Part shown: positions 6,363-63,274 of the stretch, one piece after another
Position numbering within the stretch: position 1 is the first letter of the stretch
Layout of the letters: each line of letters begins with the position of its first letter
NCBI GenBank assembly: GCA_944358265.1
Contig: CALVQR010000001.1
Span: 5,042 to 69,041, forward strand
DNA length: 64,000 nt
Reading direction: 5' to 3'
Origin: an uncultured Bacilli bacterium
Lineage (GTDB): Bacteria > Bacillota_I > Bacilli_A > RF39 > UBA660
The notes under the pieces: generated by a model
The model's database searches: none
Seen by the model: the letters and a program-made list of their open reading frames with translations, nothing else
What the model was told of the DNA's origin: nothing
Made by a program: the position numbers and the translations under genes

Positions 6363-7190
6363 TTATCTTTCTCGATCATCTTTTTTCATGTTATTAAAAG
6401 TTTTAAGATTATCATTCCAATATTTATCATCATTTAACCAATCATAGTCATCATCATAAAGTGGAGAATCATTTTCAAATTTTTTAAAATTTAAATCTAA
6501 AGCCGACTTAAAATATCCATATTTATTTACAATTTCATTACCATCTTCATCTTTAAATTTATTACTTTTTACTTTATTAACAATATAATGAATTGACATG
6601 AATAACTGTTCTCTAGTATAACCTCTATTCAAGTAGTCACTAAATAAATTATCATAATAATTTAGATTATACTCATTACTATTTACATATCCATTTTTTA
6701 TTAATTCTTTTGTAAATATTGAATATTCATCACTATGTGATGTTTTATCTATTTTATCTATTAATTTATTAGTATTTATTATATTAGTATTTAATTGTTG
6801 TTGATTTTCCAATGTTGGACTATCCATAGGTGGAAAATCACATGTTGGATTGTTTTGACTCAAATACAAACTTTTAGGAAGATCATATACTATATATTTA
6901 TAAGTAAATAATCCTTTATTATCTTTTTGTTTTATTATTTCAATATATCCAGCATTTTTTAATTCATTTATTGCTGTTCTTATAGCCGAATAACTTTCCT
7001 TACATATGGATACTAAACCGTTAAATGAATAATCCCAATTTGGAGGTAAACTTATCATTTTACATAATAATCCAATTGATTTTAATGAAAGATTTTTATC
7101 ACGTAATATCTGATTGTTAACAATCGTAAAATTATTACTTCTCTTTATTTGAAATTCTGTTTTGTTGTTCATTTTTATACCTCCAATCAA
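6363..7190 (-). CDS. Putative plasmid/phage replication initiator (winged-HTH N-terminal domain)
   Basis: FTIVNNQILRDKNLSLKSIGLLCKMISL...SYSAIRTAINELKNAGYIEI resembles the HTH_36-type N-terminus of Firmicute Rep/DnaD-like initiators. Positioned between the partition genes and the cargo. Confidence 0.45.
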   Translation of the reverse strand: MIGGIKMNNKTEFQIKRSNNFTIVNNQILRDKNLSLKSIGLLCKMISLPPNWDYSFNGLVSICKESYSAIRTAINELKNAGYIEIIKQKDNKGLFTYKYIVYDLPKSLYLSQNNPTCDFPPMDSPTLENQQQLNTNIINTNKLIDKIDKTSHSDEYSIFTKELIKNGYVNSNEYNLNYYDNLFSDYLNRGYTREQLFMSIHYIVNKVKSNKFKDEDGNEIVNKYGYFKSALDLNFKKFENDSPLYDDDYDWLNDDKYWNDNLKTFNNMKKDDRER

Positions 7191-7210
7191 AAAAAGAGCT
7201 TGCCACAGCT

Positions 7211-8158
7211 CTATCTTTCACACTTATCACGTTCTTTTAGATGCCTACCATAAAATTCGCACGCTTTTATAACAAAGTCCTCATAATTATTTATCCTAAT
7301 ATTTTTGGGTACAACACTGCGAATTTTGTCTTCACTCAATTTGATTTTGGGGACTTGATTAGGTTTTTCTTGTTCCATAATTTCTCGTATTTTTTCTTCA
7401 TTAAGATTATTAGAATCACTTAATTTTCTAAATTCAATTGTTTGGGCATGACTGGGAGTTGATTCAGTATATCCAATAGAATCCAAAACTAACAATTGTT
7501 CATCCTTCTTTAAATATGATAATTCTACAGCTGGTCTTAGAGCTATAGATGGTGATTCTCCTAAAACAGAATTATCTACCATTTGCAATAATTCTGGAAT
7601 AAGTTCATTTAACCTAATATATCTATATACTTGGTTTTTACTTTCCCCAGCTTCTGCGCCTATTAATTCAGATGACAACTTATTTCCCACTGGGGAAGAA
7701 GTTAAATCTTGACGACTACCTTGATGTTTTATGGCATCAAGTTTCATTTTATATGCTTTTGCTTTTTCACTTGGTAAAATGAATTCACGATGCATATTTG
7801 AATCAACCATATAAATAATTGCTTCGTCATCTGACATATTTCTAACAATACATGGTATTGATTTGTTTCCAATAAGTTCTGAAGCTCTTTTTCTTCTATG
7901 ACCAGATATTATTTCATAACGTTCACCTTTTTCTCTTACAATAATAGGTTCTAGTACACCATTAGCATTAATACTCTCTTCCAATTTCCTAAGTTCATCA
8001 TTTTCTATCACTTTAAACGGATGATTTGGAAAACAATCAATCATAGATAGATCAATATTTTCTATCTTTTCTTTTTGTTTATCATCACGTTGCTCTTGTG
8101 TAGTAAAGAAATCATCTAGATTGAAATTGGGACGATCTATGTTGCTCTTTTTGTCCAT
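7211..8158 (-). CDS. parB: ParB-like partition/nuclease-domain protein (element copy)
   Basis: GVLEPIIVREKGERYEIISGHRRKRASELIG...IVRNMSDDEAIIYMVDSNMHRE is the ParB/Spo0J N-terminal box. Overlaps the parA 3' end. Confidence 0.8.
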   Translation of the reverse strand: MDKKSNIDRPNFNLDDFFTTQEQRDDKQKEKIENIDLSMIDCFPNHPFKVIENDELRKLEESINANGVLEPIIVREKGERYEIISGHRRKRASELIGNKSIPCIVRNMSDDEAIIYMVDSNMHREFILPSEKAKAYKMKLDAIKHQGSRQDLTSSPVGNKLSSELIGAEAGESKNQVYRYIRLNELIPELLQMVDNSVLGESPSIALRPAVELSYLKKDEQLLVLDSIGYTESTPSHAQTIEFRKLSDSNNLNEEKIREIMEQEKPNQVPKIKLSEDKIRSVVPKNIRINNYEDFVIKACEFYGRHLKERDKCER

Positions 8159-31503: not shown

Positions 31504-33492
31504 TTATTCTAAACTAGTAAAATCTTCATCATCACTTTTAACTTCTCTATCATTTTTTACTTCTTCATAATTTTTTCCTTGAAAATTATTAAGTTTATCT
31601 TCCTGTTTTTTTGATAACACTTTGTCTATATTACTAATTTTTTTCTTTCTCTTTAATAAAATTATTGTAACTATTCCTGCTGTTATTAACGTTAACAAAA
31701 TTATTATCATTATTATTAATATATTGTTTGATTTTTCTATATCTATAATATATGTTCTTATGTCCCCATTTTCAGCAGTTACTTTTATTGTTATCTTACT
31801 TCCATCTTTTAAATTTTCATTACCAGTTATTTTATATTCTGCAGTTTCATCATCAAGCACTATACTTAAATTAAGTTCATCTTCTTTTGTTTTTACTGTA
31901 TATCTATATACATTTTTAGCAAAATCTATACTATGATTTTTAATTGTCAATGATTTTATAAAATTGTTTGTTGATAATTTTTCCCCTTCGTTTTTTCTAA
32001 CAACAGTTATCTTATATTCACTTTTTTTACCATTTTCTGCTTCTACTGTTATTGTGAATATATTTTCACCAATTTTTAAATTTTCATCTCCAGTAATTGT
32101 AACTTTAGACTTATCTACATTAGGTATTGCTTCTATTTTAAAAGTTTCAACATCATACTCAACATTTACTTTATATTCTAATGTTTCAGGATCAAAATCT
32201 ATCTTACCAGTACTTAAATTTATTTCTTTTAGAGTAGAATCACTATCTCTTCCATCTTTTCTATTAATATTTAATGTATATGTTCTAAGTTCTCCTTTTT
32301 CATTTTGTACTTGTATATAAACAGTATTATTACCTAAAGATAAATTTACAGTCCTTGGTCCTGTCCCATTTACAAAACTAGCTTTATTATCATCAAGAGT
32401 TGCAGATATCGTTACACTTTCAACATCATTTTCTACATCTACATTATATGTTGTTGTATTTTTACTAAAATTTATTTTCCCATTACTTATTGATAATGAT
32501 TTCAAATAATTATTATCACTTCTGACATCTTGTCTTGTAATATTTATTGTATATGTTTTTACGCTACCATCTTCTGCGGTTACATTTATTCTAAATGTAT
32601 TTAACCCATAATTTAAATTAAATTTACCTAATGATCCAGAAACAGAAGCTTTTGTATCATCTTTAGTGGCGCTTATTTGTGTTTCTGATTCAGTTGTAGT
32701 CAAATTATATGTTGTTTTATTTTTATCAAATGAAATATCAGTATTAGTAACAATAAGTGATGATAGATTATTATTTTTACTTCTATTATCAGGTCTTGTT
32801 ACATTAATTGTATACGTTCTCGTCTCTCCAGTTTCACTAGTTACATTTATTCTAAATATATTTGTCCCATAGTTTAATGAAACATTACCTATATTCCCAG
32901 TTAAAGTTGAATTTGAATCCATTTTAGTTGCACTTATTACAGCACTGTTACTATTAATTGTAGTTGTATAATTTAATGTATTAGAATTAAAATTAATACT
33001 TCCTCCGCTAATAGATAATGAAGATAATCTATTTTCATTTGATCTTATTCTTATACTAGCATTAACATTGCCCGCATTATAACTATTATATGATGTATCT
33101 GATGCTTCTATATCTCTAAGTCCTACTGTATATGTTTGATTTGATGTTGCATTACTAGGAAGTGTTACAGTTAGTGTTCCTAATGTTGTTGTTGATGCAA
33201 AACCATTTAAATTTCCTAAAACAAAACCTAAATTACTTCCTGGAGTATAATTAGAAAAATTATTTGAAACAGTAAATCCATTATATGTTATTTCTTCACT
33301 AAAATTATAATGTGCTGATACCCCATTTAATGTAACACCAGATGGTGTTGCACTTATTGTACACTGCACTTGTGCTCCTGCACTACTTGTACTAGGACAA
33401 CTTATATTTACACTAAAACCTGCAGCACTTACCTTGATAGGTAAAACAATGATAATTCCTAGTAAAACCAATACTCCTATTTTATTCTTCAT
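31504..33492 (-). CDS. Membrane-anchored surface scaffold: signal peptide, cohesin-like N-domain, five or six cadherin-like beta-sandwich repeats, C-terminal TM and charged tail
   Basis: N-terminal roughly 140 aa (FSVNISCPSTSSAGAQVQCTISATPSG...YNFSEEITYNGF...LGTLTVTL) resembles a cohesin module. Repeats of about 95 aa (LSSLSISGGSINF...YGTNIFRINVTSETGETRTYTINVTR) are cadherin-like. C-terminal TM IIMIIILLTLITAGIVTIILL, then KRKKK. Confidence 0.5.
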   Translation of the reverse strand: MKNKIGVLVLLGIIIVLPIKVSAAGFSVNISCPSTSSAGAQVQCTISATPSGVTLNGVSAHYNFSEEITYNGFTVSNNFSNYTPGSNLGFVLGNLNGFASTTTLGTLTVTLPSNATSNQTYTVGLRDIEASDTSYNSYNAGNVNASIRIRSNENRLSSLSISGGSINFNSNTLNYTTTINSNSAVISATKMDSNSTLTGNIGNVSLNYGTNIFRINVTSETGETRTYTINVTRPDNRSKNNNLSSLIVTNTDISFDKNKTTYNLTTTESETQISATKDDTKASVSGSLGKFNLNYGLNTFRINVTAEDGSVKTYTINITRQDVRSDNNYLKSLSISNGKINFSKNTTTYNVDVENDVESVTISATLDDNKASFVNGTGPRTVNLSLGNNTVYIQVQNEKGELRTYTLNINRKDGRDSDSTLKEINLSTGKIDFDPETLEYKVNVEYDVETFKIEAIPNVDKSKVTITGDENLKIGENIFTITVEAENGKKSEYKITVVRKNEGEKLSTNNFIKSLTIKNHSIDFAKNVYRYTVKTKEDELNLSIVLDDETAEYKITGNENLKDGSKITIKVTAENGDIRTYIIDIEKSNNILIIMIIILLTLITAGIVTIILLKRKKKISNIDKVLSKKQEDKLNNFQGKNYEEVKNDREVKSDDEDFTSLE

Positions 33493-33493
33493 A

Positions 33494-36397
33494 TCAAAAA
33501 CTTCCTTTCAATATATAATTTGCTAATTGCATTACATCACTTATTTTTATATTCCCATCTTCGGTTACATCTGCGGCTATTTTATAACATTCTTCTTCTA
33601 TTACACTATTATCTAATATATAATTTGCTGTCTTCATTACATCTGCGATTGTTACTTTTCCTGTACCTGTTACATCACCTATAACACTTACAGTATACTC
33701 TTTTACTTCTGTGTTTATTTCTATTTTTATTTTACTTCCTGTTCTTACTATATCTTCTTTTGTTAATTCTTCCCCTTTATTATCCGTTACTGTTATCTCC
33801 CCCGTTGTTTCTATTTTCTTTAATATTTCTTCATATGTATCATTTATTTTAAATCCTAGTATTATATTATTTTCATTTATATTTAAATTACTTATATTTA
33901 TATATTCTGTTGTTATTTCATAGTTTTCTATCTCTCCATATTTATCACTGGTTACCTTTAAAGTCATTCCACTTTTTACTATACTATCTGTTACTTTATT
34001 TTCATTATAATATACATCATATGCTAATTTTTCTGATGAGATATTACCTATAAATTCTTTATAATCTATTTCTTCTTTTATTATTATCTTATTATTTACT
34101 ACATGTAAATCTCCAAATGATATTTCCAATTTTTCTAAACTGTCTATTTTTTCATCATTATATATTATTTCTAAAGTATCTTCTTTTTCATTTATACCCC
34201 CATTTATTACAGTTATTTTGCTTTCGTCTAATTCTTCTGTTAAATATATATACTCTTTTGTTACTTTATATTCATTACTTATTATTCTTACTATTTTATA
34301 CGTATCTAATGTTTTCCCATTATAGCTTATCTCTAAATTATTATCTTTTATGTTTAATTCACATTCTGTATTTATACTTTTTAAATCTAATTCTTCTATA
34401 TTTGTATATATATATTTACTTTCTAATTTATATTTATCACTTGATATATTTAATATCTTAAATTCTTTTACAACCTCATTACCATTTTTTATTTGCAGTT
34501 TATTATCACTTATTTCTATTGCTCCATATTCAATATTTAAATTGCTTAATATTTCTTCTTTATCATAATCTGATCCTACAAATATATATTCTTCTTCATC
34601 ATTTATTACATATTTATTAGTTGTTAATCTTAATATTTGAAATTCTTTTATTAGTACATTACCATTTTTTATTTGCACTTTATTATCATTTATTTCTAAT
34701 GTACCATATGTAGTACCTAAATTACTTAATATTATTTTTTCATCTGATTCTGAACCTACAAATATACTCTCTTCATCATTATTTACTATATATTTATCAC
34801 TTGTTAACTCTGTTACGTATACTTTATATAAACCAGATACTAAATTACTTGAAGAATCTCCTTTAAAATATAATTTATAATTATATTCTCCTGATTCTGA
34901 ACATGTAATTTCTAAGTTTTCTACTTTTTCATCGTCTAGATAAGAATAATTATATTCTTTAGTAAAATTAGAATTTAATTTATAATTATCTGAATCTATT
35001 TTTTTTGATAAATCTATTTTATCATTTTTATAAACTATACTTTCACCTAAATCAAAAGGATTAGAATAAGAGTGTAGTGTTGTTAAATTTGGATTATTAC
35101 TTACATCTAGACTTGTTAAATTATTTTCTTCTACTGACAAACTTGTTAATTTTTCATTTTTACTTATATCTAGACTTGATAATTGATTTCTTCTTATAGA
35201 CAAATCAACTAAATTTGAATTGTTACTTACATCTATATTTTTTAATTCATTTCTAGTTACATTTAAATTTGTTAAATTTACATTTTTACTTACATCTATA
35301 TTTGTTAGACTATTTCCATATAGCAATAAATTTTTCAAATTTACATTTTTACTTACATCTATATTGGTTAAATTGTTCAATTGTGCATCTAAATATGTTA
35401 TTTTTACATTATTATTTATATCTATATTTTTTAAATTGTTGCGAGATATATCTAAATCTTCTAAATTTGAATTGTTGCTTACATCTATACTTGTTAAGTT
35501 ATTATTAGATACATTTAAATTTTTCAAATTTACATTTTTACTTACATTTAAATTTGTTAATTGGTTTTCAGATACATCTAAAGATTTTAAATTTACATTT
35601 TTACTTACATCTATATTGGTTAAACTATTACTTTCATTAAAGGAATCACCGCCTACATCTAAATAAGATAAATTTTCATTATTACTTACATCTAGGCTTG
35701 TTAATTTATTATATCCTACATCTAAATAAGATAATTTAGGATTATTACTTATATCTAGACTTGTTATGTTATTCCTTCCTAATTTTAGTGATAGTAAGTT
35801 TGGATTATTGTTTACATCTATATTTTTTAGTTGGTTTTCAGATACATCTAAATATTCTAAATTTACATTTTTACTTACATCTAGATTTGTTAATTGGTTT
35901 TTAGATACTGATAAACTTGTTAAATTTACATTTTTACTTATATCTAAACTTGTTAATTGAGTGCTTCCTACGATTGATTCATACCCCAAATATAATTCTG
36001 TCAAATTTACATTTTTACTTACATCTAGGCTTGTTAGGTTATCACTATTTAATTCTAATAATGTTAAGTTTGTCATAAGCTCTAGTCCTGATGTTGATGT
36101 CATTGAATTATTTCTGCACCTTAATATTTTTATTCCTTCTAGTTGTGTATTTGTTAAATTTGTTGTATATGATACTTTTTCACCAGCTATTTCATTATAC
36201 GCATCTATTACACAATTATAAAAGGTTTGATCTGTAAATGCATTATTCGCAGGTGTTCCTAAGTTATTTGCTATTATCTTATTTAATTTTGTTGGGTTTG
36301 TCATATTATAATGATTACCTGATAATAATCCTATTATCATTATTAATAATATTATTAATACTATTACTCTATCTCTTTTTTTATTCATATTATTCAT
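33494..36397 (-). CDS. Secreted internalin-like leucine-rich-repeat protein with C-terminal type-I dockerin
   Basis: About fifteen 22-residue LRRs (NLTSLDVSKNVNLTxLxVSxNQL), repeated domains of about 60 aa, and a C-terminal duplicated Ca-binding segment GDVTGTGKVTIADVMKTANYIL...ADVTEDGNIKISDVMQLANYIL (dockerin). Start moved to MNNMNKKR behind an AGGAGA RBS. Ends 1 nt before the cohesin-like gene. Confidence 0.65.
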   Translation of the reverse strand: MNNMNKKRDRVIVLIILLIMIIGLLSGNHYNMTNPTKLNKIIANNLGTPANNAFTDQTFYNCVIDAYNEIAGEKVSYTTNLTNTQLEGIKILRCRNNSMTSTSGLELMTNLTLLELNSDNLTSLDVSKNVNLTELYLGYESIVGSTQLTSLDISKNVNLTSLSVSKNQLTNLDVSKNVNLEYLDVSENQLKNIDVNNNPNLLSLKLGRNNITSLDISNNPKLSYLDVGYNKLTSLDVSNNENLSYLDVGGDSFNESNSLTNIDVSKNVNLKSLDVSENQLTNLNVSKNVNLKNLNVSNNNLTSIDVSNNSNLEDLDISRNNLKNIDINNNVKITYLDAQLNNLTNIDVSKNVNLKNLLLYGNSLTNIDVSKNVNLTNLNVTRNELKNIDVSNNSNLVDLSIRRNQLSSLDISKNEKLTSLSVEENNLTSLDVSNNPNLTTLHSYSNPFDLGESIVYKNDKIDLSKKIDSDNYKLNSNFTKEYNYSYLDDEKVENLEITCSESGEYNYKLYFKGDSSSNLVSGLYKVYVTELTSDKYIVNNDEESIFVGSESDEKIILSNLGTTYGTLEINDNKVQIKNGNVLIKEFQILRLTTNKYVINDEEEYIFVGSDYDKEEILSNLNIEYGAIEISDNKLQIKNGNEVVKEFKILNISSDKYKLESKYIYTNIEELDLKSINTECELNIKDNNLEISYNGKTLDTYKIVRIISNEYKVTKEYIYLTEELDESKITVINGGINEKEDTLEIIYNDEKIDSLEKLEISFGDLHVVNNKIIIKEEIDYKEFIGNISSEKLAYDVYYNENKVTDSIVKSGMTLKVTSDKYGEIENYEITTEYINISNLNINENNIILGFKINDTYEEILKKIETTGEITVTDNKGEELTKEDIVRTGSKIKIEINTEVKEYTVSVIGDVTGTGKVTIADVMKTANYILDNSVIEEECYKIAADVTEDGNIKISDVMQLANYILKGSF

Positions 36398-36493
36398 AAA
36401 AACTTCTCCTATTATCATTATTATTATACAATATTTTTTTATTTTCATAAATATATTAATTAAAATTTGATATAATTATTATGGTGATTATAT

Positions 36494-37459
36494 ATGGCTG
36501 GAACAATTACACATGCATATTTTGTATTAGATGTATATGATAAATTAGATAATAAAACTAAAAAAAATCTATATAAATATAAAGAAAACTTAAAAACTTA
36601 TGGCCAAGGACATGATTTATTTTTCTTTTGCACTAATTTTACTAAACAAAAAAATATAGGAAATTATTTTCATAAAAACGAAACTAAAAATTTTTTTATT
36701 AATATGATTAAATATATTCATAATAATAAATTACAAAATAATTATGAAATAATGGCTTATTTATACGGATATATTTGTCATTATAGTTTAGATTTAACCA
36801 TACATCCATATGTAACATATAAATGTGGTATATTTAAAAAAGGAAACAAAGAAACATATAAATATAATTCTAAACATAGTGATATGGAAAGTTATATTGA
36901 TGCATATATGATTAATAAAAAAGAAAATATTGAACCAAACAAATTTAAAATACATAAATTTTGTTTCAATACTAAAGTATCACACACTTTATCAACTATG
37001 ATTGATTACATATATGAAGAAACATATAATTTAAAACATATTTCATTTTATTATAAACAAGGCATTTTTAATACGAAAATATTATATAGATTGCTTAGAT
37101 ATGATCCATATAAAATTAAAAAATATCTATATAAGACCTTTGACAAAATTTCTACTAAAGGAATAAAAAAAACATATCCAATAAGTTTTGCTTATAATTT
37201 AAATAATAATGATTATTATTTAAATTTAAATCATAATAAATGGAATCATGCAAAATATAAGGAAGAAGTATATACTTATTCAGTAATTGATTTATACAAT
37301 AATGCATTAAAACTCGCAGTTAATATTATAAATAATGTTAATGATGTTTTATACAACAATAAAAATATGAAGATTTTAGATAAAGTTTTTTTAAATTTAT
37401 CTTTTTCAAGTGGAAAAAATTGTAATGATAAAACTAAAAATAAATATTTTGAATATTAA
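36494..37459 (+). CDS. Zinc-dependent phospholipase C family protein (no signal peptide)
   Basis: GTITHAYFVLDVY and GYICHYSLDLTIHPYV parallel the THAxIV and HYFGDxxxPxH zinc-ligand blocks of the Zn-PLC fold. Confidence 0.5.
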   Translation: MAGTITHAYFVLDVYDKLDNKTKKNLYKYKENLKTYGQGHDLFFFCTNFTKQKNIGNYFHKNETKNFFINMIKYIHNNKLQNNYEIMAYLYGYICHYSLDLTIHPYVTYKCGIFKKGNKETYKYNSKHSDMESYIDAYMINKKENIEPNKFKIHKFCFNTKVSHTLSTMIDYIYEETYNLKHISFYYKQGIFNTKILYRLLRYDPYKIKKYLYKTFDKISTKGIKKTYPISFAYNLNNNDYYLNLNHNKWNHAKYKEEVYTYSVIDLYNNALKLAVNIINNVNDVLYNNKNMKILDKVFLNLSFSSGKNCNDKTKNKYFEY

Positions 37460-53311: not shown

Positions 53312-54235
53312 TTAACCATCTATAGTAACGTGTGATAGTTCTAATCCATATAATTCAATAGTAATTAAATGTTCGTCCAATTCGTTATTTAAGTAGGTTA
53401 GCTCGCCACAATTAACTTTACTAACATAAATAGTTGGCTTTCCTATTTTTTCAATAATTTCATCTCTTGTATGATTTTTAACATACCATTCATCCTTTTT
53501 GAATTTTTCAAATAGATGATTTATTACTTCATATTTATTTTTAAAATAATATTCTATTATTTGATCAGCATAATCAGTAAGTTCTTCTTTAACTTCGTCA
53601 GCTGTAATAATGACTTTTAATCCTTTATACTTATATTCAAATCCATTTTTTGTTTTATAGATTGAATCATCATATAATTCTTTTATAAAAGTATTCCAAT
53701 CATCAGTAATTACATCAAAAGTATCTGTTTCATGATTATAAATTACTATTTTATTTGTTCCTCTTTCAAAACATAAAGTATCACCAAATTCTAATTCTGC
53801 AAAAGGTACAATTTTGTTTTTTAATTCTGAATCAAAACTTTGAAATTTTAGAATATAAGTTTTACTATTAGGATCCATAGAATAGAAATATCTAACTAAT
53901 TTTTCCGTTCCATTTGATAATCCTAAAATATTTTTTTCAGGTTTTAAAGTTGAATTATTTAACAAGTATTTTTTATAATCTTCTACAAATGTGTAATTAA
54001 TTTTTTTTTCAACATTGTTTATATATTGTAATATTTCAGAGTCTAACTTTTTTGTTTTGTTATCAATACTTTTCAAAATACTTTCCACTTCTTCATTTGT
54101 TACTTTTAATTCTTTTAATTTATCTTGATCCTTATTAGATAAAGCATCAATTATTTGTTTTGTTCTATCATTTTCCATTTTTCTCTCTCCTTTATTTAAC
54201 ATGTTTACCACCATTTGCCAATAATATACTTTCAT
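53312..54235 (-). CDS. SUKH (SMI1/KNR4) family immunity-like protein with N- and C-terminal extensions
   Basis: INYTFVEDYKKYLLNNSTL (LPxdYxxFL...NG-like) and IVPFAELEFGDTLCFERGTNKIVIYNHETDTFDVITDDWNTFIKELY match the SUKH-1 core. Confidence 0.5.
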   Translation of the reverse strand: MKVYYWQMVVNMLNKGERKMENDRTKQIIDALSNKDQDKLKELKVTNEEVESILKSIDNKTKKLDSEILQYINNVEKKINYTFVEDYKKYLLNNSTLKPEKNILGLSNGTEKLVRYFYSMDPNSKTYILKFQSFDSELKNKIVPFAELEFGDTLCFERGTNKIVIYNHETDTFDVITDDWNTFIKELYDDSIYKTKNGFEYKYKGLKVIITADEVKEELTDYADQIIEYYFKNKYEVINHLFEKFKKDEWYVKNHTRDEIIEKIGKPTIYVSKVNCGELTYLNNELDEHLITIELYGLELSHVTIDG

Positions 54236-54246
54236 TATTCTTTACC

Positions 54247-55815
54247 CTATATTCCTTTTCTTGAAATATTATTATAGATTTCATCACTTTTATTAATGTC
54301 ATTTACATAATCATAACTACCTCTTACCATTTCATATTTACTATATATTTTTTCAATTAAAGGCAATGCAATACTAAAATCAATATCATTATTATCTAAA
54401 TTAATTATATAATCTACAACTTTACCTTTTTCACATCTCAACTCATCAATATCTTTTAATTCCATTATTTGAAAAATTGTTGGTTCTTTATCAGACCATT
54501 TAGTCAAAGATATAGTTAAACCAGCATTTTGAATTTCTTTTCTTATTCTATCAACTAAATCAATATCTTCTATATCTATAAAAGAATTCATGATTATATC
54601 AATACGTCTATAAATTTCACTACCATCAATGTTATCAATTCCTTTTCCATTATTAGCAATTAATTCATTTAATATATCAATTTGTTCTAAAAAATGATTA
54701 AAATCTCTATAATAAATCTCTATTTCATTACATATTTGACTAAGTTTATCCATTCTTCCATTTTGAATTCCACTATTAATAAGTGTATACTTACTTATGA
54801 AAGCTTCTGTAATTGCTTCTCTCAATCCTCCAGTGTTGTATGCATCATTATATTTATCAAATAAATCATTTTTATAGTAATCCGATATTTTAGTATTACT
54901 AGGTTTAATTGACTCTAGGTAATCAATTGCACTTTTCTTTTTTATTTCAAAATCAATTTGTTGATCTGTTGCTATTGTACGCATAGAACTTTTATATGAA
55001 ATATCTTTTTTTGATGGTTTAATCTTTTTCTGTTTTATTAAATCAATAAACATTCTTAATGAATTAATATCACTCATTCTTTTTAATCTTTCAATATCAA
55101 ATGAAAGTAAATTTAAAAATTGATTCCCAGTATCTTGGATTTTTACGGTATTATTTTGAATTAACAAATCAAGTTTTTTTTGCAAATCTTCCGCAGTACA
55201 TGGAGAACTATATTCTACTAAAAATTTTTCCATTTCTTCATAAGTTCCAAAGTCCATAAACCAAGGTCTTCCACGAAAAGGGGTACCTATTTTTATATAA
55301 AACAAGTCATTTTCTGCATATTCTTTAAATTTTGTCATTACAAAAGGTCTTATTGGATTTGAGAGTTCTGTAAACCATTCTTGCAATTTATGCTCTATTT
55401 TATATTGAATTGGATTAACAGAATAATTACATTCGCTCATCTTTATTTCATCGTTTTTATCACCAAATGATTCTCTATCATTTTTTTGTAAATCTAATAT
55501 TGGGGTTTTTTTATAAATAAACCAATTCCTTAACGTACGATATTCATATAATAATGTTTTAAAATTTGAAATAATTTTAGGTTGACTAAAAAGATGTGTT
55601 GCCTGATCTGCTTGTGGCTGTGTTTGAAATTCACCTATAAAATGATCAGTATATTTTGCATTTTTAAGCCAATTTTGTAATTTTTCAATTTTTTTCTCCA
55701 TTTTTTTATCTAATTGTTCAATGGTGAAATTATTGAATTCAACTCCAAAAATATCAAAATCTTGTGCCATATATCTTATATCTATTTTTCTATTGCCTAA
55801 TAGATTTGTTTGCAT
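54247..55815 (-). CDS. Large hypothetical protein (522 aa), island component
   Basis: ORF track; no motif recognised by eye. Separated from the SUKH gene by 11 nt, suggesting an operon. Confidence 0.45.
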   Translation of the reverse strand: MQTNLLGNRKIDIRYMAQDFDIFGVEFNNFTIEQLDKKMEKKIEKLQNWLKNAKYTDHFIGEFQTQPQADQATHLFSQPKIISNFKTLLYEYRTLRNWFIYKKTPILDLQKNDRESFGDKNDEIKMSECNYSVNPIQYKIEHKLQEWFTELSNPIRPFVMTKFKEYAENDLFYIKIGTPFRGRPWFMDFGTYEEMEKFLVEYSSPCTAEDLQKKLDLLIQNNTVKIQDTGNQFLNLLSFDIERLKRMSDINSLRMFIDLIKQKKIKPSKKDISYKSSMRTIATDQQIDFEIKKKSAIDYLESIKPSNTKISDYYKNDLFDKYNDAYNTGGLREAITEAFISKYTLINSGIQNGRMDKLSQICNEIEIYYRDFNHFLEQIDILNELIANNGKGIDNIDGSEIYRRIDIIMNSFIDIEDIDLVDRIRKEIQNAGLTISLTKWSDKEPTIFQIMELKDIDELRCEKGKVVDYIINLDNNDIDFSIALPLIEKIYSKYEMVRGSYDYVNDINKSDEIYNNISRKGI

Positions 55816-55914
55816 TTAATTCACCTCATTTTTTTGTTCTATTATTTCCCATTTTTTTCTCTTTTCTATATAATGTAATTATTTAAGATTAGTATAGTTT
55901 TTTTTTAAGATAAA

Positions 55915-57168
55915 TTACATCATCCTTTTTCCACTACGTTCAACATTTTCAGCTATTTCAGTTTCTTCTGTGATGTCATCAAACAAATTATCATCAATAC
56001 CAATTTCACTCATTCTTCTTTTATAAATCATTTCACGGAATTGCTGTTCTACAATTTGCTGTCTTTCTGGCTCTAATTCATCATAGTCATATTTTTCTTT
56101 AATCATTTCCCATTCTTGATCTTCTCTCGTTTTATTTTCATTAATAGAAGTATTTACTTGTGCCTGTTCTTTTTTATATTGATTATCTTTCTTTCGACGA
56201 AGAAATACCATAGACATAAGACCATCTAATCTTTTTTCTTTCTTATCAAACTTACTTGTTACATAAGGAACTCCTTCTTGCTTTTTTCTTTCTTCAAATG
56301 CAACTTTATCTTGCATATTTTTTATTTTATCATTTTTTAAGATTTCAATAATTGAATCAATATTTATTGCTTGTCCTTTTAAACCATTTATGTATCTTAT
56401 TGTTTGAAAATCTATATCTGATTCATTTTGTTTAAATGTCTTTGCCACTAAATATCTTAACATACCATCTACATTGCTTGTAATTAAACTATCTTCATTA
56501 ATATACTTTAAACCATTTTTGCCATAAATAGATTTTAAAATATTTAATTCATCTCTACCAATAGCATTTCTTTTCATTGGCAACATTCTTTCCATAGCAT
56601 TAGCAAATATTTCTAGTCTATATTTACGCATTTCTAATTTTTGTTTTACTTGTTCTGAAATATCATCTATTTTTGATAAATCAATATCCTCTGCATCATG
56701 TAAAATATCCGCACCAATTCTAACTCGATATAATGTATAATTATCAGCAGGAACAAAATCCGTTATCCATTCGTCACCTTGAAATCCATTATTATAATGC
56801 CCCCTCAATTGATCTGAAATAAAAGGTTTTCTTACATTTAATCCATCTGTATTAATTTGATATATTACTGCAACAGATGGTATTATTATTCGTTCGTTAT
56901 AAATTGATAGATTATTATGAATCGGTATTCCATCATGGTGTAAATCACCATATGCTGATGTTACCATACTCAAATTGTCAGACATATAAACACCATATTC
57001 ATTTCCATCAGTAACAGTCTTTCTACCATACTGATCAATAATAGGAGCATAATTAACTTTTAAATCAACACCAGAAAATTTAAAAGATTGTAACTTATTA
57101 TAATCAATTTTTATCCCTCTATATAATACACTTGGTTTATTTTCCATATTTACCTCCTTTATCTTCAT
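55915..57168 (-). CDS. Hypothetical protein (417 aa), island component
   Basis: ORF track. The N-terminal half has weak R / S-T-S-like patterning (LYRGIKI...MVTSAY) but no convincing catalytic signature. Its stop is 8 nt from the start of the next gene. Confidence 0.45.
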   Translation of the reverse strand: MKIKEVNMENKPSVLYRGIKIDYNKLQSFKFSGVDLKVNYAPIIDQYGRKTVTDGNEYGVYMSDNLSMVTSAYGDLHHDGIPIHNNLSIYNERIIIPSVAVIYQINTDGLNVRKPFISDQLRGHYNNGFQGDEWITDFVPADNYTLYRVRIGADILHDAEDIDLSKIDDISEQVKQKLEMRKYRLEIFANAMERMLPMKRNAIGRDELNILKSIYGKNGLKYINEDSLITSNVDGMLRYLVAKTFKQNESDIDFQTIRYINGLKGQAINIDSIIEILKNDKIKNMQDKVAFEERKKQEGVPYVTSKFDKKEKRLDGLMSMVFLRRKKDNQYKKEQAQVNTSINENKTREDQEWEMIKEKYDYDELEPERQQIVEQQFREMIYKRRMSEIGIDDNLFDDITEETEIAENVERSGKRMM

Positions 57169-57175
57169 TTAAAAT

Positions 57176-57790
57176 TTAATTAATACAATCTATATCAATA
57201 ACTTTGTTATCCTTAAATATAATTTTATACACGCCTGGACTTTTTGGCTTTTCATAAACAATTACTTTTTTGTTATATTTTATATAAATCTTCTCATTAA
57301 CAAATTTAAAATCACAATGATTTTGTAAGAATGATAAAAGCATTATTCCATGAATAACTACAATTGATTTTTCATTATTTTGCAAAATATCTTCTATGAA
57401 ACTATCAAATCTCAAGTCTATATCATTCAAAGATTCTCCATTATTAACTTTAAAATTTTTATCTTTAAATGAATGCACTGTAAAATCACTAGGAAGTTCA
57501 TTTAGAAATTTTATTCCAAATTCTCTTTCATTTATTCTATCATCTAGTTTTATTTTTGTTTTATTTGATTCACTTAAATATTTAGCAGTTGCTATAGCAC
57601 GAAAAGAATTACTTGAATATATATTTTTAATATTCTTTAATTCTTCTATCTCACATAGTTTTTGAGCTTTTTCTTCTCCTTGAACAGATAATATCATATT
57701 TTTATTATATTCATACCATGACATATTTTCTTGATTATCATACTCAACAAATGGACCAGAATGTCTTATTAAATAAACTATTTTTTCCAA
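57176..57790 (-). CDS. Histidine phosphatase superfamily (phosphoglycerate-mutase-like branch) protein
   Basis: N-terminal RHG-type motif VYLIRHSGP and a downstream catalytic His context SIVVIHGIMLLSF. Confidence 0.6.
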   Translation of the reverse strand: MEKIVYLIRHSGPFVEYDNQENMSWYEYNKNMILSVQGEEKAQKLCEIEELKNIKNIYSSNSFRAIATAKYLSESNKTKIKLDDRINEREFGIKFLNELPSDFTVHSFKDKNFKVNNGESLNDIDLRFDSFIEDILQNNEKSIVVIHGIMLLSFLQNHCDFKFVNEKIYIKYNKKVIVYEKPKSPGVYKIIFKDNKVIDIDCIN

Positions 57791-57995
57791 TTAGAACACC
57801 TCATATCTTTATTAAATTATAGCACAACACATAAATATATTCTATATCTAAGGCTGAACTAACATAGTGATTTACAAAGAATGTCTTAATTATTAAATCA
57901 TATCTGTAATATACAATTGTATTCTGGTCTTGCTTTTTCTCAACACGTAGATACTCATTAATTTTATATTTAACTTTTTTGTTATAAATATTTTG

Positions 57996-59735
57996 TTATA
58001 AATATATTGATATTGGATATTTTTTAAAAGACTCTATAGTTTGATAATCAATATCTTTTATTAAGATACTGGCTTCAACTTTACTATCCATTAATAAACT
58101 GCAACACAACTGTATTTCTACATTAGAATTATTAGTTTTAATGTTCATTAGTTCTTTTATTTCTTCATCTGTTAGCTTGTTTTCACGCTTTAAAATCTGA
58201 CACAAGTTTATATAATATATATCATGCGAATCAGAATCTTTTTCTAGTAAAATATTTATCAAAAACTTTGCGTATGATAATAAATTTGAATTTTTATTAT
58301 AATCATATGCTTTTATTATTTCCAATACTTGCGCATTTAGCAGTTCATATTCACCATCTCTTAAACTATAATCTGTAAAGATTTCTTTCATTTCATCAAA
58401 ATTTATATCATCTGAAAGGTATGCCTCAGAATTAAGAATAAGATATAAGTTATTAGTATTAATTTCTTTTTCGTTGTTCTGATATTTAAAAACATACTTT
58501 TTATAATCTATATTATTCCATAAGCTTTCTATATAAAAACTTCCTTTTTCGTTTTTGTGAGCCATTATAGATAGTCTTAAATCTCGTATTTCTATAGAAC
58601 CAATCAAGCTTATCTCACTTTTTAAATTTAGAGGAATCTTATCTTCTATTGCTGTAAGCCAAATATTGAGTTTATTGAAATCTTTATCTTGCCACTCATC
58701 AAAATTTAAATCTTTATTAACATTATGTTTTAACAATATTTGTTTTAATTCTTCATATTGAGATAACAATGTTTTAAATTTAGAGAATTCTTTTTCGGGA
58801 AACTCAACTACAAATTCTTTCTCATTAATCAAAAAACCTTTATTTATAAAAGCCTTATTTATAAAATGAAGAGCCTTTATACGTTCTAATAAACTTCCAC
58901 GAATTTTTATGTTAAAAGTATGTTTCGTTAAATTAAAATTGAAACTATTCCCAAAATATATTATTTGTTCATTTAATTTTGTTTCTAATTTTATGCCTTT
59001 ATAAATAATCTCTTTCTCTGTATCTGAAATAACAGCGTTCAAGTTTTCAATTATATTATATATTATCCCAAAACTTGCACCAATAGGGTATTCATGTTCG
59101 TCAAAAGTATAAATAAATTTACTCATTCCAACTAATTTTTGTGGATTGAAATTTTGCATATCCTTATCCCATACACTAAATCTTGCTACTTTACCATTTT
59201 CTACAGTTAGATTTTCTTGATTGAACATATTTTGATTCATCTTTTTTTGTATTTCCTTATCTATTTGAAAATTTCTACATATACTTTCTAAATGCGAGGC
59301 ATCTTTTATTTCTTTAATTTTCACTCTAATAGTATCAGATGAATCATTATTCTTTAAATAATTATTTATGTGGTATGGTAACAAAGATGAAAAATATATT
59401 TTAAAATCATCACTTTCTCGTTTAAATAAACACATAAGTAATAATGTTCCATTTTTTTTTAAAAAATTTTGCATATCTATAACTGATAAATCAAAATAAC
59501 TTTTGTCTGTTAATTTCTTGTTATTTGTGGTTCTTCCTTTGACTTGTACATCAATTGAAAACTGAAAATTTTCCTTTTTATCAATATTTCCATGATAAAA
59601 ATCAATAGTACCATCCCAAGAAATAGATTTATCATTGCTTTGAATATGTCCATCAGCACTTTCTATTTTATCAATTAGTTCATTAATTTTAGTAATAGCT
59701 CTTTGTTCTGTTTTTTTACTACTAATATTTCCCAT
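57996..59735 (-). CDS. DUF4365-like (restriction-endonuclease-fold) N-terminal domain protein with large uncharacterised alpha-rich C-terminal region
   Basis: SWDGTIDFYHGNIDKKENFQFSIDVQVKGRTTNN...LLLMCLFKRESDDFKIYF reproduces the D-G-iD ... vQvK ... hydrophobic core ... yW/yF pattern of DUF4365 / PD-(D/E)xK-like modules. Confidence 0.5.
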   Translation of the reverse strand: MGNISSKKTEQRAITKINELIDKIESADGHIQSNDKSISWDGTIDFYHGNIDKKENFQFSIDVQVKGRTTNNKKLTDKSYFDLSVIDMQNFLKKNGTLLLMCLFKRESDDFKIYFSSLLPYHINNYLKNNDSSDTIRVKIKEIKDASHLESICRNFQIDKEIQKKMNQNMFNQENLTVENGKVARFSVWDKDMQNFNPQKLVGMSKFIYTFDEHEYPIGASFGIIYNIIENLNAVISDTEKEIIYKGIKLETKLNEQIIYFGNSFNFNLTKHTFNIKIRGSLLERIKALHFINKAFINKGFLINEKEFVVEFPEKEFSKFKTLLSQYEELKQILLKHNVNKDLNFDEWQDKDFNKLNIWLTAIEDKIPLNLKSEISLIGSIEIRDLRLSIMAHKNEKGSFYIESLWNNIDYKKYVFKYQNNEKEINTNNLYLILNSEAYLSDDINFDEMKEIFTDYSLRDGEYELLNAQVLEIIKAYDYNKNSNLLSYAKFLINILLEKDSDSHDIYYINLCQILKRENKLTDEEIKELMNIKTNNSNVEIQLCCSLLMDSKVEASILIKDIDYQTIESFKKYPISIYL

Positions 59736-60142
59736 TTACATCATCTCCTAACAAGATATTTAATATCTATATTATATCACGAAAAAAGTCGCATTTTTTT
59801 GCAACTTATATTTCTAAATCAAAGTCATCATGATCTTTATGTTTATTATCTTCTTTACTCCAATTATAATCTTCTTTTATGTCATCTATGGTTTTATCAC
59901 TAAATATCCTATGTTCGTATAAGCCTTTTGAAAATTTTTAATAATCTTCACGTTCTTTGTCTTTGACGAATATTTTATGTTTGATAAAATTGATTAATCT
60001 ATCAAATAAATCTTTAAAGTAATCTACTAGTTCTTCAAGATGCTTATTATCTTTTTTTAACTCTTTAATCTCTTTATTTTCGATATTTTTTGATAAAGTA
60101 TCTACTTTAAGAGATATTGCTTCATTGTTTTCGGTTAGTATT

Positions 60143-60608
60143 TTAATTTTTTATTTTCCAATTTTCTAAAGTATTATTTATGTGCTTTAAATTGTATGTT
60201 CCATTAAGAATTGCATTCTTAACTGCATATCTTGTTATTTCGTTATCTTCCCATTTGGAAATGTATTTATATTCAGTTGGACTTAACAGTCTTCCAAATT
60301 CTTGCTCTATATAACTATAAATATTAATATTATCCATTATTCTTATATTCTTCTATTGTGGTTATTTCGTTGGTTGAAATTAAGTGTTTTATTGCTGTTC
60401 TTATCTCTTGCTCTGACAAACCTAATTCTTTAGATAATTGTTTTCTACTTGTTACAAAACTACCTCTTGAAGCTTCTATCCCCCTAAACAAACCATCTTC
60501 CCAATTTGCTTTTAATATGCAATGAATGAATACTGCTTTTGTATTTACATCTGTATACCCTTCCCAATTGAGAAATTTATTATGAATTTTTATCCAACTT
60601 TCATTCAT
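60143..60608 (-). pseudogene. Phage replisome-organiser / DnaD-domain gene split by a frameshift
   Basis: 60330..60608 encodes a wHTH N-part (FVTSRKQLSKELGLSEQEIRTAIKHL). 60143..60337 encodes a DnaD C-domain (YIEQEFGRLLSPTEYKYISKWEDN...AVKNAILNG...NTLENW). The two ORFs overlap by 8 nt in different frames. Confidence 0.55.
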
Positions 60609-60857
60609 TGTCTTTTTCCTTTAATAAAATTTGAATTTTGTTCGTTCTTAAGCTATAATTAATTAATATTTTATTTTTAAAATACTAATTTATTTATTGA
60701 ATTATCTACTTTCAATTGTGGTTGGTTGTGTAGATAATTCTTTTTTTCGTCTATTTGTTATGCATTTATACACATTAATATAAATCAAAAAACACCTGTT
60801 ATTACTAATAATATATATCCTAGCATCTCTTTTCTCACTTTTTGATCCGCATCCTTT

Positions 60858-61025
60858 CTATAATCCCAAAACATGTTTTTCAAAATATTGTATTGGTATT
60901 CTTTTCCCTATGATAATTACATTAGGATTTTCTTTTTTCATTTGATTTTGTAGTTTTTCTATTATTCGATAACATTTTGTTTCCCCATATCCTGTAATTT
61001 TCATTATGTCTTTTACTCCATACAT
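60858..61025 (-). CDS. Small HTH_17/excisionase-family DNA-binding protein
   Basis: MYGVKDIMKITGYGETKCYRIIEKLQNQ...VIIIGKRIPIQYFEKHV behind a GGAGGG RBS. Coordinates approximate. Confidence 0.45.
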   Translation of the reverse strand: MYGVKDIMKITGYGETKCYRIIEKLQNQMKKENPNVIIIGKRIPIQYFEKHVLGL

Positions 61026-61110
61026 TTTTTATCCCTCCTCATAAAATTTTGTCCAGTCAAAATTAAATGTTCCCCACTAGTCTTTTTGTTGTGTAAACAC
61101 TACATTCCCC

Positions 61111-61270
61111 TTAAAAAAAATAACGCCTATATCACAATTTAGGAATTTTTCAAGTTTTAACATTGTTTTACTTTCAATATTATCTAAAGAATTAGTTTCA
61201 ATCATAGATATTGTTGATCTAGATACCCCAGATTTTATTGAAAGAGCTTCTTGGCTTAAACCTTGTTTTT
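61111..61270 (-). CDS. Cro/XRE-family HTH protein lacking a canonical start codon (possible pseudogene)
   Basis: Reverse frame encodes ...NNRIKEFRQKQGLSQEALSIKSGVSRSTISMIETNSLDNIESKTMLKLEKFLNCDIGVIFF. There is no in-frame ATG/GTG/TTG between the upstream stop and the HTH, despite a GGAGG RBS nearby. Confidence 0.4.
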
Positions 61271-61386
61271 GTCTAAATTCTTTGATTCTATTATTCCTTT
61301 TTACCTCCTATCTCTATGTTAATCATACACTACACTTTTTTACTTTGTCAACAGTAAACAACAATTTCTTTATTTTTTCCTTGAAT

Positions 61387-61410
61387 AATTGTAAAGTATG
61401 TATTACAATT
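61387..61410. promoter_or_regulatory. Candidate operator: perfect 8-bp inverted repeat AATTGTAA-N8-TTACAATT between divergent Cro-like and CI-like genes
   Basis: Lies about 20 bp upstream of the CI-like gene start (61432) within TTGAAT...TACAAT promoter-like hexamers. Confidence 0.4.
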
Positions 61411-61431
61411 GTCGTAAAGGAGATGTTTTGT

Positions 61432-62121
61432 ATGAATTACATAGGTAGCTTTATAAAAAATTATAGAGGTGATATGTCTCTAAGAGAATTTGCTGATAAA
61501 TGTGGAATTAGTCATACACATTTAGATAGTATCGAAAAAGGATTCGACCCTAGGACTGGAAAACCTGTAAGAGTAACGGTTGATACATTAAAAAAAATAG
61601 CATCTGCTATGAATATGTCTGTTAATGATTTGTTAATTCAATCTGGTGACGTTAAATTAGAAGAATTAAATTTTGACAATGCAGAACTGGTTTCGCCAAT
61701 AAAAGAAAGTATAAAAATACCTGTATTAGGTAAAATTCCTGCAGGAATGCCTTTTGAAGCAATAGAAGACCAATATACAATTGATTTTGAAGAAATACCC
61801 TATTCTTGGTTAAAAGGAGGAAATCAATTTTTTGCTTTAAAGTTAGATGGTGACAGTATGGAACCAGAATATCACAACAATGATATAGTTATTTTTAAGA
61901 AAACAAACACATGTAAATCTGGTCAAGATTGTTGTATAAAAATAAATGGGTATGATGCTACATTTAAAAGAGTAAAAAGACAAGAAAATGGAATTATGAT
62001 TATTCCACTTAACGAAAATAATTCAACAGGTTTTACTGCTACTTTTTATACAAACGAAGATATAATAAATAAACCAATAGAAATTATTGGAGTTGTCAAA
62101 CAAATAAGAAGAAATATTTAA
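61432..62121 (+). CDS. CI/LexA-like repressor: XRE HTH plus S24 peptidase domain
   Basis: N-terminal HTH (MSLREFADKCGISHTHLDSIEKG), C-terminal S24 motif LKLDGDSMEPEYHNNDIVIFKK and Lys in TFKRVKR. Start trimmed to MNYIGSF behind an AAGGAG RBS. Confidence 0.75.
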   Translation: MNYIGSFIKNYRGDMSLREFADKCGISHTHLDSIEKGFDPRTGKPVRVTVDTLKKIASAMNMSVNDLLIQSGDVKLEELNFDNAELVSPIKESIKIPVLGKIPAGMPFEAIEDQYTIDFEEIPYSWLKGGNQFFALKLDGDSMEPEYHNNDIVIFKKTNTCKSGQDCCIKINGYDATFKRVKRQENGIMIIPLNENNSTGFTATFYTNEDIINKPIEIIGVVKQIRRNI

Positions 62122-62189
62122 ATTTATAAAATATTATAAAAAATATATTTATTAGTAAATTTTTTAATAGATGTAAAGGAGGTATAAGT

Positions 62190-62783
62190 ATGAAATATTG
62201 CACTAAATGTGGGAATCAATTAAATGATAATGCTATCTTTTGTACTAAATGTGGTATAAATTTGATTAATGGTTCTACCAATTCAAATAACACTATACAA
62301 AATATTAACAATATATCATGTCCAAAATGTCATAGTAATAATATTAATTTTCAAGTTATTAATGAAAGTACACTTGTGACAAAACATCACGGAATATTAT
62401 GGTGGTTATTAATTGGATGGTGGTGGATTTTTGTTAAATGGATTTTTCTTACAATACCAGCATTAATCTTTGCTATATTTGTTGGAAAAAGAAAAAAAAT
62501 AAAAAATACTACAAAAAATTGGAATCATTTTTGTGAATTTTCAAAAATAATAAAAATGTTCTTTTTAAGTGATTTTAACATAATAAGATTAATATACAAT
62601 AGTCAAATAACAGATACAAGTAGAATTGAGATATATCCAATTGATATATTATCCTCATTGGATATTGTCAATACTGCGATGAAATCTATAATGACATCAA
62701 GTAATGCTAATTCTAGGTCAGATAAATATGTGAATTTAATATCTATAGGTAAAAAGTTTTATGAGTCAGTTATAAATTCATAA
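62190..62783 (+). CDS. Membrane protein with N-terminal double zinc ribbon
   Basis: CTKCG...CTKCG...CPKCHS followed by a Trp-rich TM segment (ILWWLLIGWWWIFVKWIFLTIPALIFAIFV). Confidence 0.5.
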   Translation: MKYCTKCGNQLNDNAIFCTKCGINLINGSTNSNNTIQNINNISCPKCHSNNINFQVINESTLVTKHHGILWWLLIGWWWIFVKWIFLTIPALIFAIFVGKRKKIKNTTKNWNHFCEFSKIIKMFFLSDFNIIRLIYNSQITDTSRIEIYPIDILSSLDIVNTAMKSIMTSSNANSRSDKYVNLISIGKKFYESVINS

Positions 62784-62794
62784 GGAGGTACCAT

Positions 62795-63274
62795 ATGTCT
62801 AAAATTAGTAATGTATTAACAATGCTTGAATATTTAAGTACTGGAAAAAAATATAGCATTTCTGAATTATCTGAAAAATTGGAAGTAAGTCCTAGAATGA
62901 TTAGAGTGTACAAAGATGAGATTGAAAAAGCAGGCATTTATATAGATACGATTAAAGGTCCATATGGTGGATATGTTTTAAATCAAAATATAAATGTTCC
63001 TAAGAGATTTATAACTCCTAATACTATTGATATTAAAAATAAGGAATTTTATAATTTAATTAATAGAGCAATTAAAGAAAAAAGAAAATGTTATATAGAA
63101 TATTATTCTAAAGATAAAAAAGAAATTTCTGTAAGAACTATTCATCCATATGATTTGATTTTACTTGGTTCAGAATGGGGAGTCGCAGCTTATTGTGAGA
63201 AAAAGCAGGAAATAAGACATTTTTATATAAATCGCATTAAAAATATAAAATTCCTAGAAAATTTTTATAACTGA
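62795..63274 (+). CDS. HTH-WYL domain transcriptional regulator
   Basis: N-terminal HTH (ISELSEKLEVSPRMIRVYKDEIEKAGIYI) and a C-terminal WYL-like block IHPYDLILLGSEWGVAAYCEKKQEIRHFYINRI. Confidence 0.6.
   Translation: MSKISNVLTMLEYLSTGKKYSISELSEKLEVSPRMIRVYKDEIEKAGIYIDTIKGPYGGYVLNQNINVPKRFITPNTIDIKNKEFYNLINRAIKEKRKCYIEYYSKDKKEISVRTIHPYDLILLGSEWGVAAYCEKKQEIRHFYINRIKNIKFLENFYN

Follow-up and report, generated by a model that had tools for sequence, protein, structure and literature searches.

A leucine-rich repeat dockerin protein and a membrane-anchored cohesin-like scaffold as a predicted surface-display pair in an uncultured Bacilli bacterium

The window analyzed here is a 64-kb stretch of DNA from an uncultured Bacilli bacterium (contig CALVQR010000001.1, positions 5,042 to 69,041) with a GC content of ~25% across its length. 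On its minus strand, two long adjacent open reading frames (ORFs) were read from the sequence at positions 31504–36448. The upstream one, gene A (33494..36397), encodes a 967-aa protein with leucine-rich repeats (LRRs) and a C-terminal dockerin, presumably a secreted cargo protein, and is backed by Pfam, NCBIfam, and PDB matches. The downstream one, gene B (31504..33492), was recognized as an ORF with Pfam matches and encodes a 662-aa protein with an N-terminal cohesin-like module, presumably a membrane-anchored monovalent scaffold. The reading frame of gene A is open back to 36448, whereby the ATG at 36397 is the probable start; it is preceded at a distance of 7 nt by a ribosome-binding site (RBS), AGGAGA (36405..36410). 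The initial annotation had trimmed the start of gene A to this ATG; the RBS agrees with it, and so does gene calling done independently on a metagenome scaffold of identical sequence, which likewise yielded a 967-aa product. The second gene had been placed 1 nt downstream, and this is what the sequence of the junction gives: it reads TGA-t-ATG, with the ATG of gene B (33492) 1 nt past the stop codon of gene A. The RBS of gene B, AGGAAG (33501..33506), lies within the 3′ end of gene A, and a search for terminator-like sites on the coding strand between and within the two genes yielded none. Because of the 1-nt spacing, the RBS inside gene A, and the lack of a terminator, genes A and B look like one co-transcribed, translationally coupled operon at the sequence level. 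Promoter prediction gave no information here, as the number of sites in the AT-rich sequence was the expected one (52 vs. 52). The whole window contains one cohesin-like and one dockerin module, and no more.

The cohesin-like module of protein B comprises residues 24–156 (33025..33423). When the N-domain (~135 aa) was used alone as a query, there was no match in Pfam (even at E ≤ 10), in NCBIfam, or in a phmmer search against the PDB. When 1.84 billion representatives were scanned exhaustively with HMMER, 201 relatives of the N-domain were identified at E ≤ 1e-3. An alignment of 64 family sequences (A1) was used for a profile search against PDB sequences and for structure prediction with AlphaFold2 (AF2). 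The best seven matches of the A1 profile were all cohesins, namely 2xdh (E 1.7e-4), 5n5p, 5m2s, 5m2o, 4uyp, 5aoz, and 10uv, with E-values of up to 7e-3. The Pfam family Cohesin (PF00963) was touched by 7 of the 64 A1 members with a best E-value of 9.2e-5, which indicates a remote homology below the level of Pfam membership. The AF2 model has nine strands, as in the flattened beta-sandwich (jelly-roll) fold of cohesins, with a mean predicted local distance difference test score (pLDDT) of 96 and a predicted template modeling score (pTM) of 0.88. In a Foldseek search of this model against the PDB, ranks 1–19 were all cohesin modules (E 3.8e-7 to 1.1e-5, template modeling scores 0.64–0.78), including those of Clostridium perfringens (2vo8, 2jh2, and 2w1n) and Archaeoglobus fulgidus (2xdh), as well as the type III cohesins of Ruminococcus flavefaciens. 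These profile and fold matches bear out the initial annotation, which had described residues ~25–170 of the protein as cohesin-like. As judged from profiles and model, the N-domain of protein B is a cohesin-fold module that is homologous to cohesins beyond the reach of the curated sequence models.

The architecture of the family was assessed with 150 listed representatives out of the 201. The N-domain begins within the first 70 residues in 149 of these 150. A transmembrane (TM) helix at the C-terminus, as in protein B, is present in 52, whereas 44 carry a C-terminal dockerin of their own, so that cohesin and dockerin are combined in one adaptor-like chain; tandem cohesin-like domains were found in 2. 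Two cysteines, C32 and C44 (CP...AG...C, window positions 33361–33399), are near-invariant across the 64-sequence family and may form a disulfide staple. No equivalent conserved Cys pair was found in the aligned PDB cohesins, as far as can be seen at the level of the alignment rather than of coordinates. Protein names for family members were absent in the 4 clusters checked.

The remaining parts of protein B are in line with the initial annotation, which had listed a signal peptide, repeated cadherin-like domains, and a C-terminal TM anchor for the 662-aa protein. According to its sequence, the protein begins with a predicted signal peptide, MKNKIGVLVLLGIIIVLPIKVSA, with the putative cleavage site in front of AGF (…PIKVSA/AGF; 33424..33492). 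The cohesin-like module is followed by five tandem cadherin-like beta-sandwich domains (31729..33024), which were matched by PF12733 in five stretches (146.5 bits vs. a threshold of 24.2) and presumably form a stalk. Thereafter come a hydrophobic C-terminal TM helix, NILIIMIIILLTLITAGIVTIILL (31654..31725), and a 49-aa charged tail starting with KRKKK (31507..31653), which is predicted to be cytoplasmic. According to the positive-inside rule, the order of TM helix and KRKKK tail implies an N-out, C-in topology of protein B.

Type I dockerins consist of a duplicated segment of ~22 residues, each with a 12-residue EF-hand-like Ca loop (D-x-N/D-x-D/N-G...D) and a helix. The C-terminal 62 residues of protein A were matched by Pfam Dockerin_1 (PF00404) with 32.6 bits in the whole protein and with 35 bits in the C-terminal half, above the gathering threshold of 22.9. 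The module (33497..33682) consists of two near-symmetrical segments, DVTGTGKVTIADVMKTANYIL and DVTEDGNIKISDVMQLANYIL, which are identical at 13 of 21 positions and have Asp at positions 1 and 12 of both loops; in loop 2, position 3 is occupied by Thr. A profile built from ten dockerins of this family (A5) matched 4uyp_B in the PDB at E 7.1e-10, followed by many type I dockerins. By these sequence matches, the C-terminus of protein A is a real dockerin, though not a textbook one. Thus, of the clear type I dockerin with two Ca loops that had been proposed initially, the dockerin assignment stands, while loop 1 turned out to be less canonical. Since near-identical halves fit a dual binding mode, the sequence suggests that there could be two alternative orientations in which the dockerin binds.

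At its N-terminus, protein A carries a putative signal sequence or signal anchor, MNNMNKKRDR followed by VIVLIILLIMIIGLL (36317..36397). By inspection, it consists of KKRDR, a 15-residue hydrophobic stretch, and LLSGNHY, and a clear AXA-type cleavage motif is absent. The following region (35078..36316) comprises an internalin-type cap and ~15 LRRs, as deduced from Pfam (LRR_4 and LRR_8), NCBIfam, the InlJ structure 3bz5, and period analysis. The repeats have the consensus LtsLdVSkNqLtnLDVSkNvn, and their period is 21 residues in 10 of 12 spacings; the internalin-like repeats of 22 residues in the initial annotation therefore have to be corrected to the 21-residue InlJ type. The best solved relative of protein A is 3bz5, which was aligned over its residues 27–361 at E 7.6e-43. 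InlJ has a cysteine ladder along its repeats and ends with an LPXTG sortase signal. In protein A, V/L occupies the positions of the cysteine ladder, and no LPXTG motif was found at the C-terminus, where the dockerin ends with ...ILKGSF. The NCBIfam InlJ model (NF033187) scored 163 bits against a cut-off of 1700, with a match confined to residues 50–324. Protein A was therefore rejected as a true InlJ orthologue, being below the cut-off and lacking both Cys ladder and LPXTG. Between LRRs and dockerin, there is a run of beta-rich modules of ~55–70 aa each, ~460 aa in total (residues ~441–905; 33683..35077), which was recognized by its repeat layout and over which Pfam yielded no match. The last of them, here called the X-like module (33683–33886), is located directly N-terminal to the dockerin and is kept at this position in partner proteins of related loci (L001 and L002, see below). 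The same X-like plus dockerin C-terminus also occurs in a metagenomic 242-aa protein (P0183), joined to a phosphotransferase system EIIA domain (PF00359); this protein is probably an assembly chimera and not a genuine architecture.

The neighborhoods of 12 distinct family members, the window included, were compared. A gene ending in a dockerin is present in 10 of these 12 loci: directly upstream of the cohesin-like gene in window/L003, L001, L002, L004/5, L010, L012, L013, and L014, and inside a gene cluster in L007 and L011. In the eight two-gene loci, the spacing between dockerin and cohesin gene ranges from an overlap to ~20 nt. Dockerin_1 was matched in all eight upstream partner proteins, whereby the cargo domains differ. 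The cargo consists of LRRs in window/L003, L002 (with the same module layout as in the window), and L014, of Listeria-Bacteroides repeats (Flg_new) in L001 and in L004/5, the latter with an additional sub-threshold NlpC/P60 match, and of a Peptidase_C1 domain in L010, L012, and L013, in the last case together with a Lectin_like domain. In L007 (4327–8822) and L011 (1029–4643), three or four cohesin-like genes are clustered, some of them with their own C-terminal dockerin, which suggests multi-tier assemblies in some lineages; another protein encoded in L007 has a dockerin and a length of 250 aa and showed a weak OB-fold toxin-like match. No other dockerins were detected in the flanks of the related loci, and no glycoside hydrolase (GH) or carbohydrate-binding module (CBM) domain was matched by Pfam in proteins A and B or in the partner proteins of the related loci. 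All loci are metagenomic and of low GC content (24–33%), at least one being from human gut (Hadza sample), and L001 derives from a metagenome-assembled genome of an uncultured Bacilli bacterium. In L001, the Flg_new-dockerin gene (6577–7938) has no evident signal peptide and no ATG in its open frame (a TTG start was called), whereas its dockerin is intact and the gene shares 4 nt with the cohesin gene; it may be 5′-truncated or decaying. Because of the cohesin fold together with the systematic linkage or fusion to dockerins, the N-domain of protein B is most simply understood as a functional cohesin, for which dockerin binding is predicted from sequence and model.

Taken together, we consider it probable that genes A and B encode a minimal non-cellulosomal cohesin–dockerin surface-display device. 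Such an anchoring device had been put forward in the initial annotation, and it is supported in silico by profile and fold matches, by the conserved gene linkage with changing cargo, and by the occurrence of cohesin and dockerin in one chain. Protein B would be exported by the Sec system and reside in the membrane as a type I protein, held by its C-terminal TM helix with the positive tail inside, and its five cadherin-like domains would act as a stalk that raises the single N-terminal cohesin to the distal tip. Protein A would be secreted separately and plug with its C-terminal dockerin into the cohesin of protein B, whereby the InlJ-type LRR solenoid and the trailing small beta modules would be displayed on the cell exterior at the tip of the stalk. 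In relatives, the socket gene is retained, while the dockerin-tagged upstream cargo is swapped (LRRs, Listeria-Bacteroides repeats with NlpC/P60, or a papain-like protease with a lectin-like domain), and some relatives resemble adaptors, with cohesin and dockerin in a single chain. The cassette is thus best regarded as a modular display system, the output of which in this window would be a ligand-binding LRR protein. By analogy with internalins, one may guess that the ligand derives from the host or from mucin, and the host-interaction adhesin considered in the initial annotation is likewise a conjecture drawn from the LRRs. As there are no carbohydrate-active enzyme (CAZyme) modules, the pair was rejected as part of a cellulosome. 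It does not match a cellulosomal anchoring scaffoldin either, which would combine an S-layer homology (SLH) or sortase anchor with carbohydrate-active enzymes, whereas the pair has a TM anchor and an LRR cargo and no GH or CBM.

There are several observations that weigh against a docking of protein A to protein B. The N-domain from the window is by itself recognized neither by Pfam nor by NCBIfam, and the A1 profile matched PDB cohesins with modest E-values, the best being 1.7e-4. It might be that the N-domain is a cohesin-fold adhesive or ligand-binding tip that does not bind dockerins, in which case protein B would act on its own as a stalk adhesin, with protein A being anchored independently or released. 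The missing Pfam Cohesin match of the window sequence would fit with this, as would the lower Foldseek ranks, which include the CLIPPER adhesin domain 9ifr (rank 20) and integrin domains, and a weak Ig_VWA7 signal in 18 of the 64 family members; moreover, a tip domain on a repeat stalk is a typical architecture of fibrillar adhesins. Nevertheless, cohesins occupy all of the top ranks in both the fold and the profile searches, and the strong linkage to dockerins, with 44 of 150 representatives carrying one in the same chain, is hard to explain without a cohesin–dockerin function, so that we regard an adhesive tip as quite improbable. On the side of the dockerin, loop 1 reads DVTGTGKVTIAD. Thr replaces Asn/Asp at its Ca-ligand positions 3 and 5, and in the L001 homologue, position 3 of this loop is Arg; for these reasons, Ca binding by loop 1 is doubtful as judged from the residues. 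For the X-like module together with the dockerin, AF2 with an alignment of three near-identical sequences reached a pLDDT of 54; three helices are placed as expected for the two antiparallel helices and the connecting helix of a dockerin fold, but the pLDDT is <50 across the dockerin.

Furthermore, 2 of the 12 loci, L006 and L008/9, are without a dockerin neighbor, both being on short contigs, and with 64 kb of the genome in view, other cohesins or dockerins elsewhere may compete. It could also be that the dockerin of protein A and the cohesin of protein B are real but not partners, with protein A binding a cohesin from another part of the genome or on another organism and protein B recruiting dockerin proteins other than A. 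In that case, the two genes would be neighbors because surface proteins are regulated jointly or because protein B serves as a general anchor within a larger network. The adaptor-like chains and the multi-cohesin clusters of L007 and L011 indicate that relatives have multi-tier networks, the module search covered 64 kb of this genome, and cellulosomal systems commonly show cross-binding and promiscuity, as is generally known and has also been discussed in PMC13487519. On the other hand, the immediate adjacency in the eight two-gene loci, often with an overlap or 1–20 nt in between and with changing cargo, is the pattern of cognate pairs, and neither the window nor the flanks of the related loci hold a further dockerin or cohesin. 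A non-partner relationship therefore appears unlikely to us, though less so than an adhesive tip. Finally, the hydrophobic N-terminus of protein A, which has no obvious cleavage site, may anchor protein A itself, and docking would then be needless for its retention. Protein A might be kept in the membrane by an uncleaved signal anchor, and docking would tension or orient it, forming a membrane-to-tip arch or a cell–cell bridge. The sequence of KKRDR, 15 hydrophobic residues, and LLSGNHY without a clear AXA-type motif would allow for this, but the cargo proteins of the related loci have ordinary signal-peptide-like N-termini by inspection. We consider such a self-anchored protein A to be the least probable of these possibilities, slightly behind the adhesive tip, and it is more a variant of the proposed display device than a true alternative.

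The proximity to the replication origin given in the initial annotation is not borne out by the surroundings of the gene pair. Immediately downstream, parA/parB are located. On the other side, a gene of the Zn-dependent phospholipase C family (PF00882, E 4.4e-12; 36494–37459, plus strand) is oriented divergently from gene A, with the two start codons ~95 nt apart; a signal peptide is not obvious in its product. The GC skew flips at ~61 kb, where the coding strand changes and genes follow for a CI/LexA-like repressor with S24 and helix-turn-helix (HTH) domains (61282–62121), a zinc-ribbon protein (62190–62783), and an HTH-WYL regulator (62795–63274), all on the plus strand. Since the flip coincides with this strand switch into regulator genes, it was rejected as evidence for oriC. 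There are no dnaA-like ORFs among the regulators at the skew flip; for the remainder of the window, no search aimed at oriC markers was made. The regulators are abutted by five consecutive ORFs of 307, 522, 417, 204, and 579 aa on the minus strand (53312–59735); PADLOC yielded no match for these five ORFs, and Pfam yielded none for the 522-, 417-, and 579-aa ORFs. The region 53312–63274 may be a mobile or defense-type island rather than oriC. With Rfam at gathering threshold, there was no match of any kind in the whole window, and hence no tRNA, rRNA, or riboswitch was found.

Beyond the single locus, the N-domain could represent an unannotated, very divergent cohesin family of ~200 clusters at 50% identity, which underlies a non-carbohydrate "display-some" in uncultured low-GC gut Bacillota. 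Cassettes of cargo-dockerin and cohesin-anchor genes together with Coh...Doc adaptors would then present LRR proteins, Listeria-Bacteroides-repeat adhesins, and papain-like proteases, which would give proteins that face the host or particles a mode of attachment other than by sortase or SLH. We put this forward tentatively, as a possibility that falls somewhat short of an even chance. If the pair indeed binds, cohesin–dockerin assembly is used well outside of plant-fiber degradation and of Clostridia, and wall-bearing gut bacteria would have a general means of attaching adhesins and proteases, in exchangeable form, to a stalk that is anchored in the membrane. As the socket is annotated merely as "cadherin-like" by standard pipelines, cohesin surveys based on Pfam would under-estimate such systems. 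One-socket/one-plug cassettes with variable cargo would also be compact and naturally orthogonal parts for engineered surface display, again provided that the pair binds. The advance would be incremental and not conceptual, since the principle and each architectural element have already been published.

Adjacent genes for a single cohesin and a single dockerin protein are known from ClcC/ClcD of Cellulosilyticum lentocellum, which form a heterodimer in vitro (PMC13487519). Like the genes described here, they lie next to each other in one operon with separate RBSs and involve a divergent cohesin (PMC13487519). They differ in having a GH5 cellulase as cargo and a cohesin protein with CBM3 and X2 but no cell anchor, the system being cell-free (PMC13487519), whereas the pair from the window has an LRR cargo, a cadherin-like stalk, a TM anchor, an N-terminal cohesin, and no carbohydrate-active module, with binding being predicted. 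TM-anchored single-cohesin scaffoldins have been found in Ruminococcus spp. by AlphaFold-based proteome screening (bioRxiv 10.64898/2026.02.05.704116). These resemble protein B in being monovalent, in their presumed C-terminal TM anchoring, and in having a cohesin too divergent for sequence annotation (bioRxiv 10.64898/2026.02.05.704116). In contrast, they come from Clostridia and form part of networks, amylosomes or cellulosomes, in which many GH enzymes carry dockerins, while the pair described here stems from a low-GC Bacilli-like lineage and combines a non-enzymatic LRR cargo (a protease or Listeria-Bacteroides repeats in relatives) with a cadherin-like stalk. As for the cargo, 28 LRR modules have been reported among the dockerin-bearing proteins of R. 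flavefaciens FD-1, besides peptidases with dockerins (PMC2930009). The SIGN-LRR-Doc architecture, which like peptidase-Doc is abundant in FD-1, is shared with protein A; however, the LRR-Doc proteins of FD-1 are part of a cellulosome with 222 dockerins and are not paired with dedicated cohesin anchor genes (PMC2930009).

The best structural and profile matches of the N-domain, the cohesins of C. perfringens GH proteins (2vo8, 2jh2, and 2w1n) and 2xdh of A. fulgidus, are likewise non-cellulosomal, and the N-domain shares 8–15% sequence identity with them. Unlike in protein B, where the cohesin is predicted to sit at the tip of a membrane-anchored stalk, the C. perfringens cohesins are located inside secreted toxins or GH enzymes and assemble enzyme complexes. 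With Listeria InlJ (3bz5; NF033187), protein A has the 21-residue LRR consensus and the N-terminal cap in common but neither the Cys ladder nor the LPXTG sortase anchor, and its attachment is predicted to occur by the dockerin instead. Overall, single pairs, LRR-dockerin proteins, and TM-anchored single cohesins have all been published, and every element has a precedent. The differences lie in the lineage, in the complete lack of carbohydrate-active modules, in a stalk made of cadherin-like domains, in a one-socket/one-plug cassette that recurs with swapped cargo, and in a cohesin family that is invisible to Pfam and NCBIfam.

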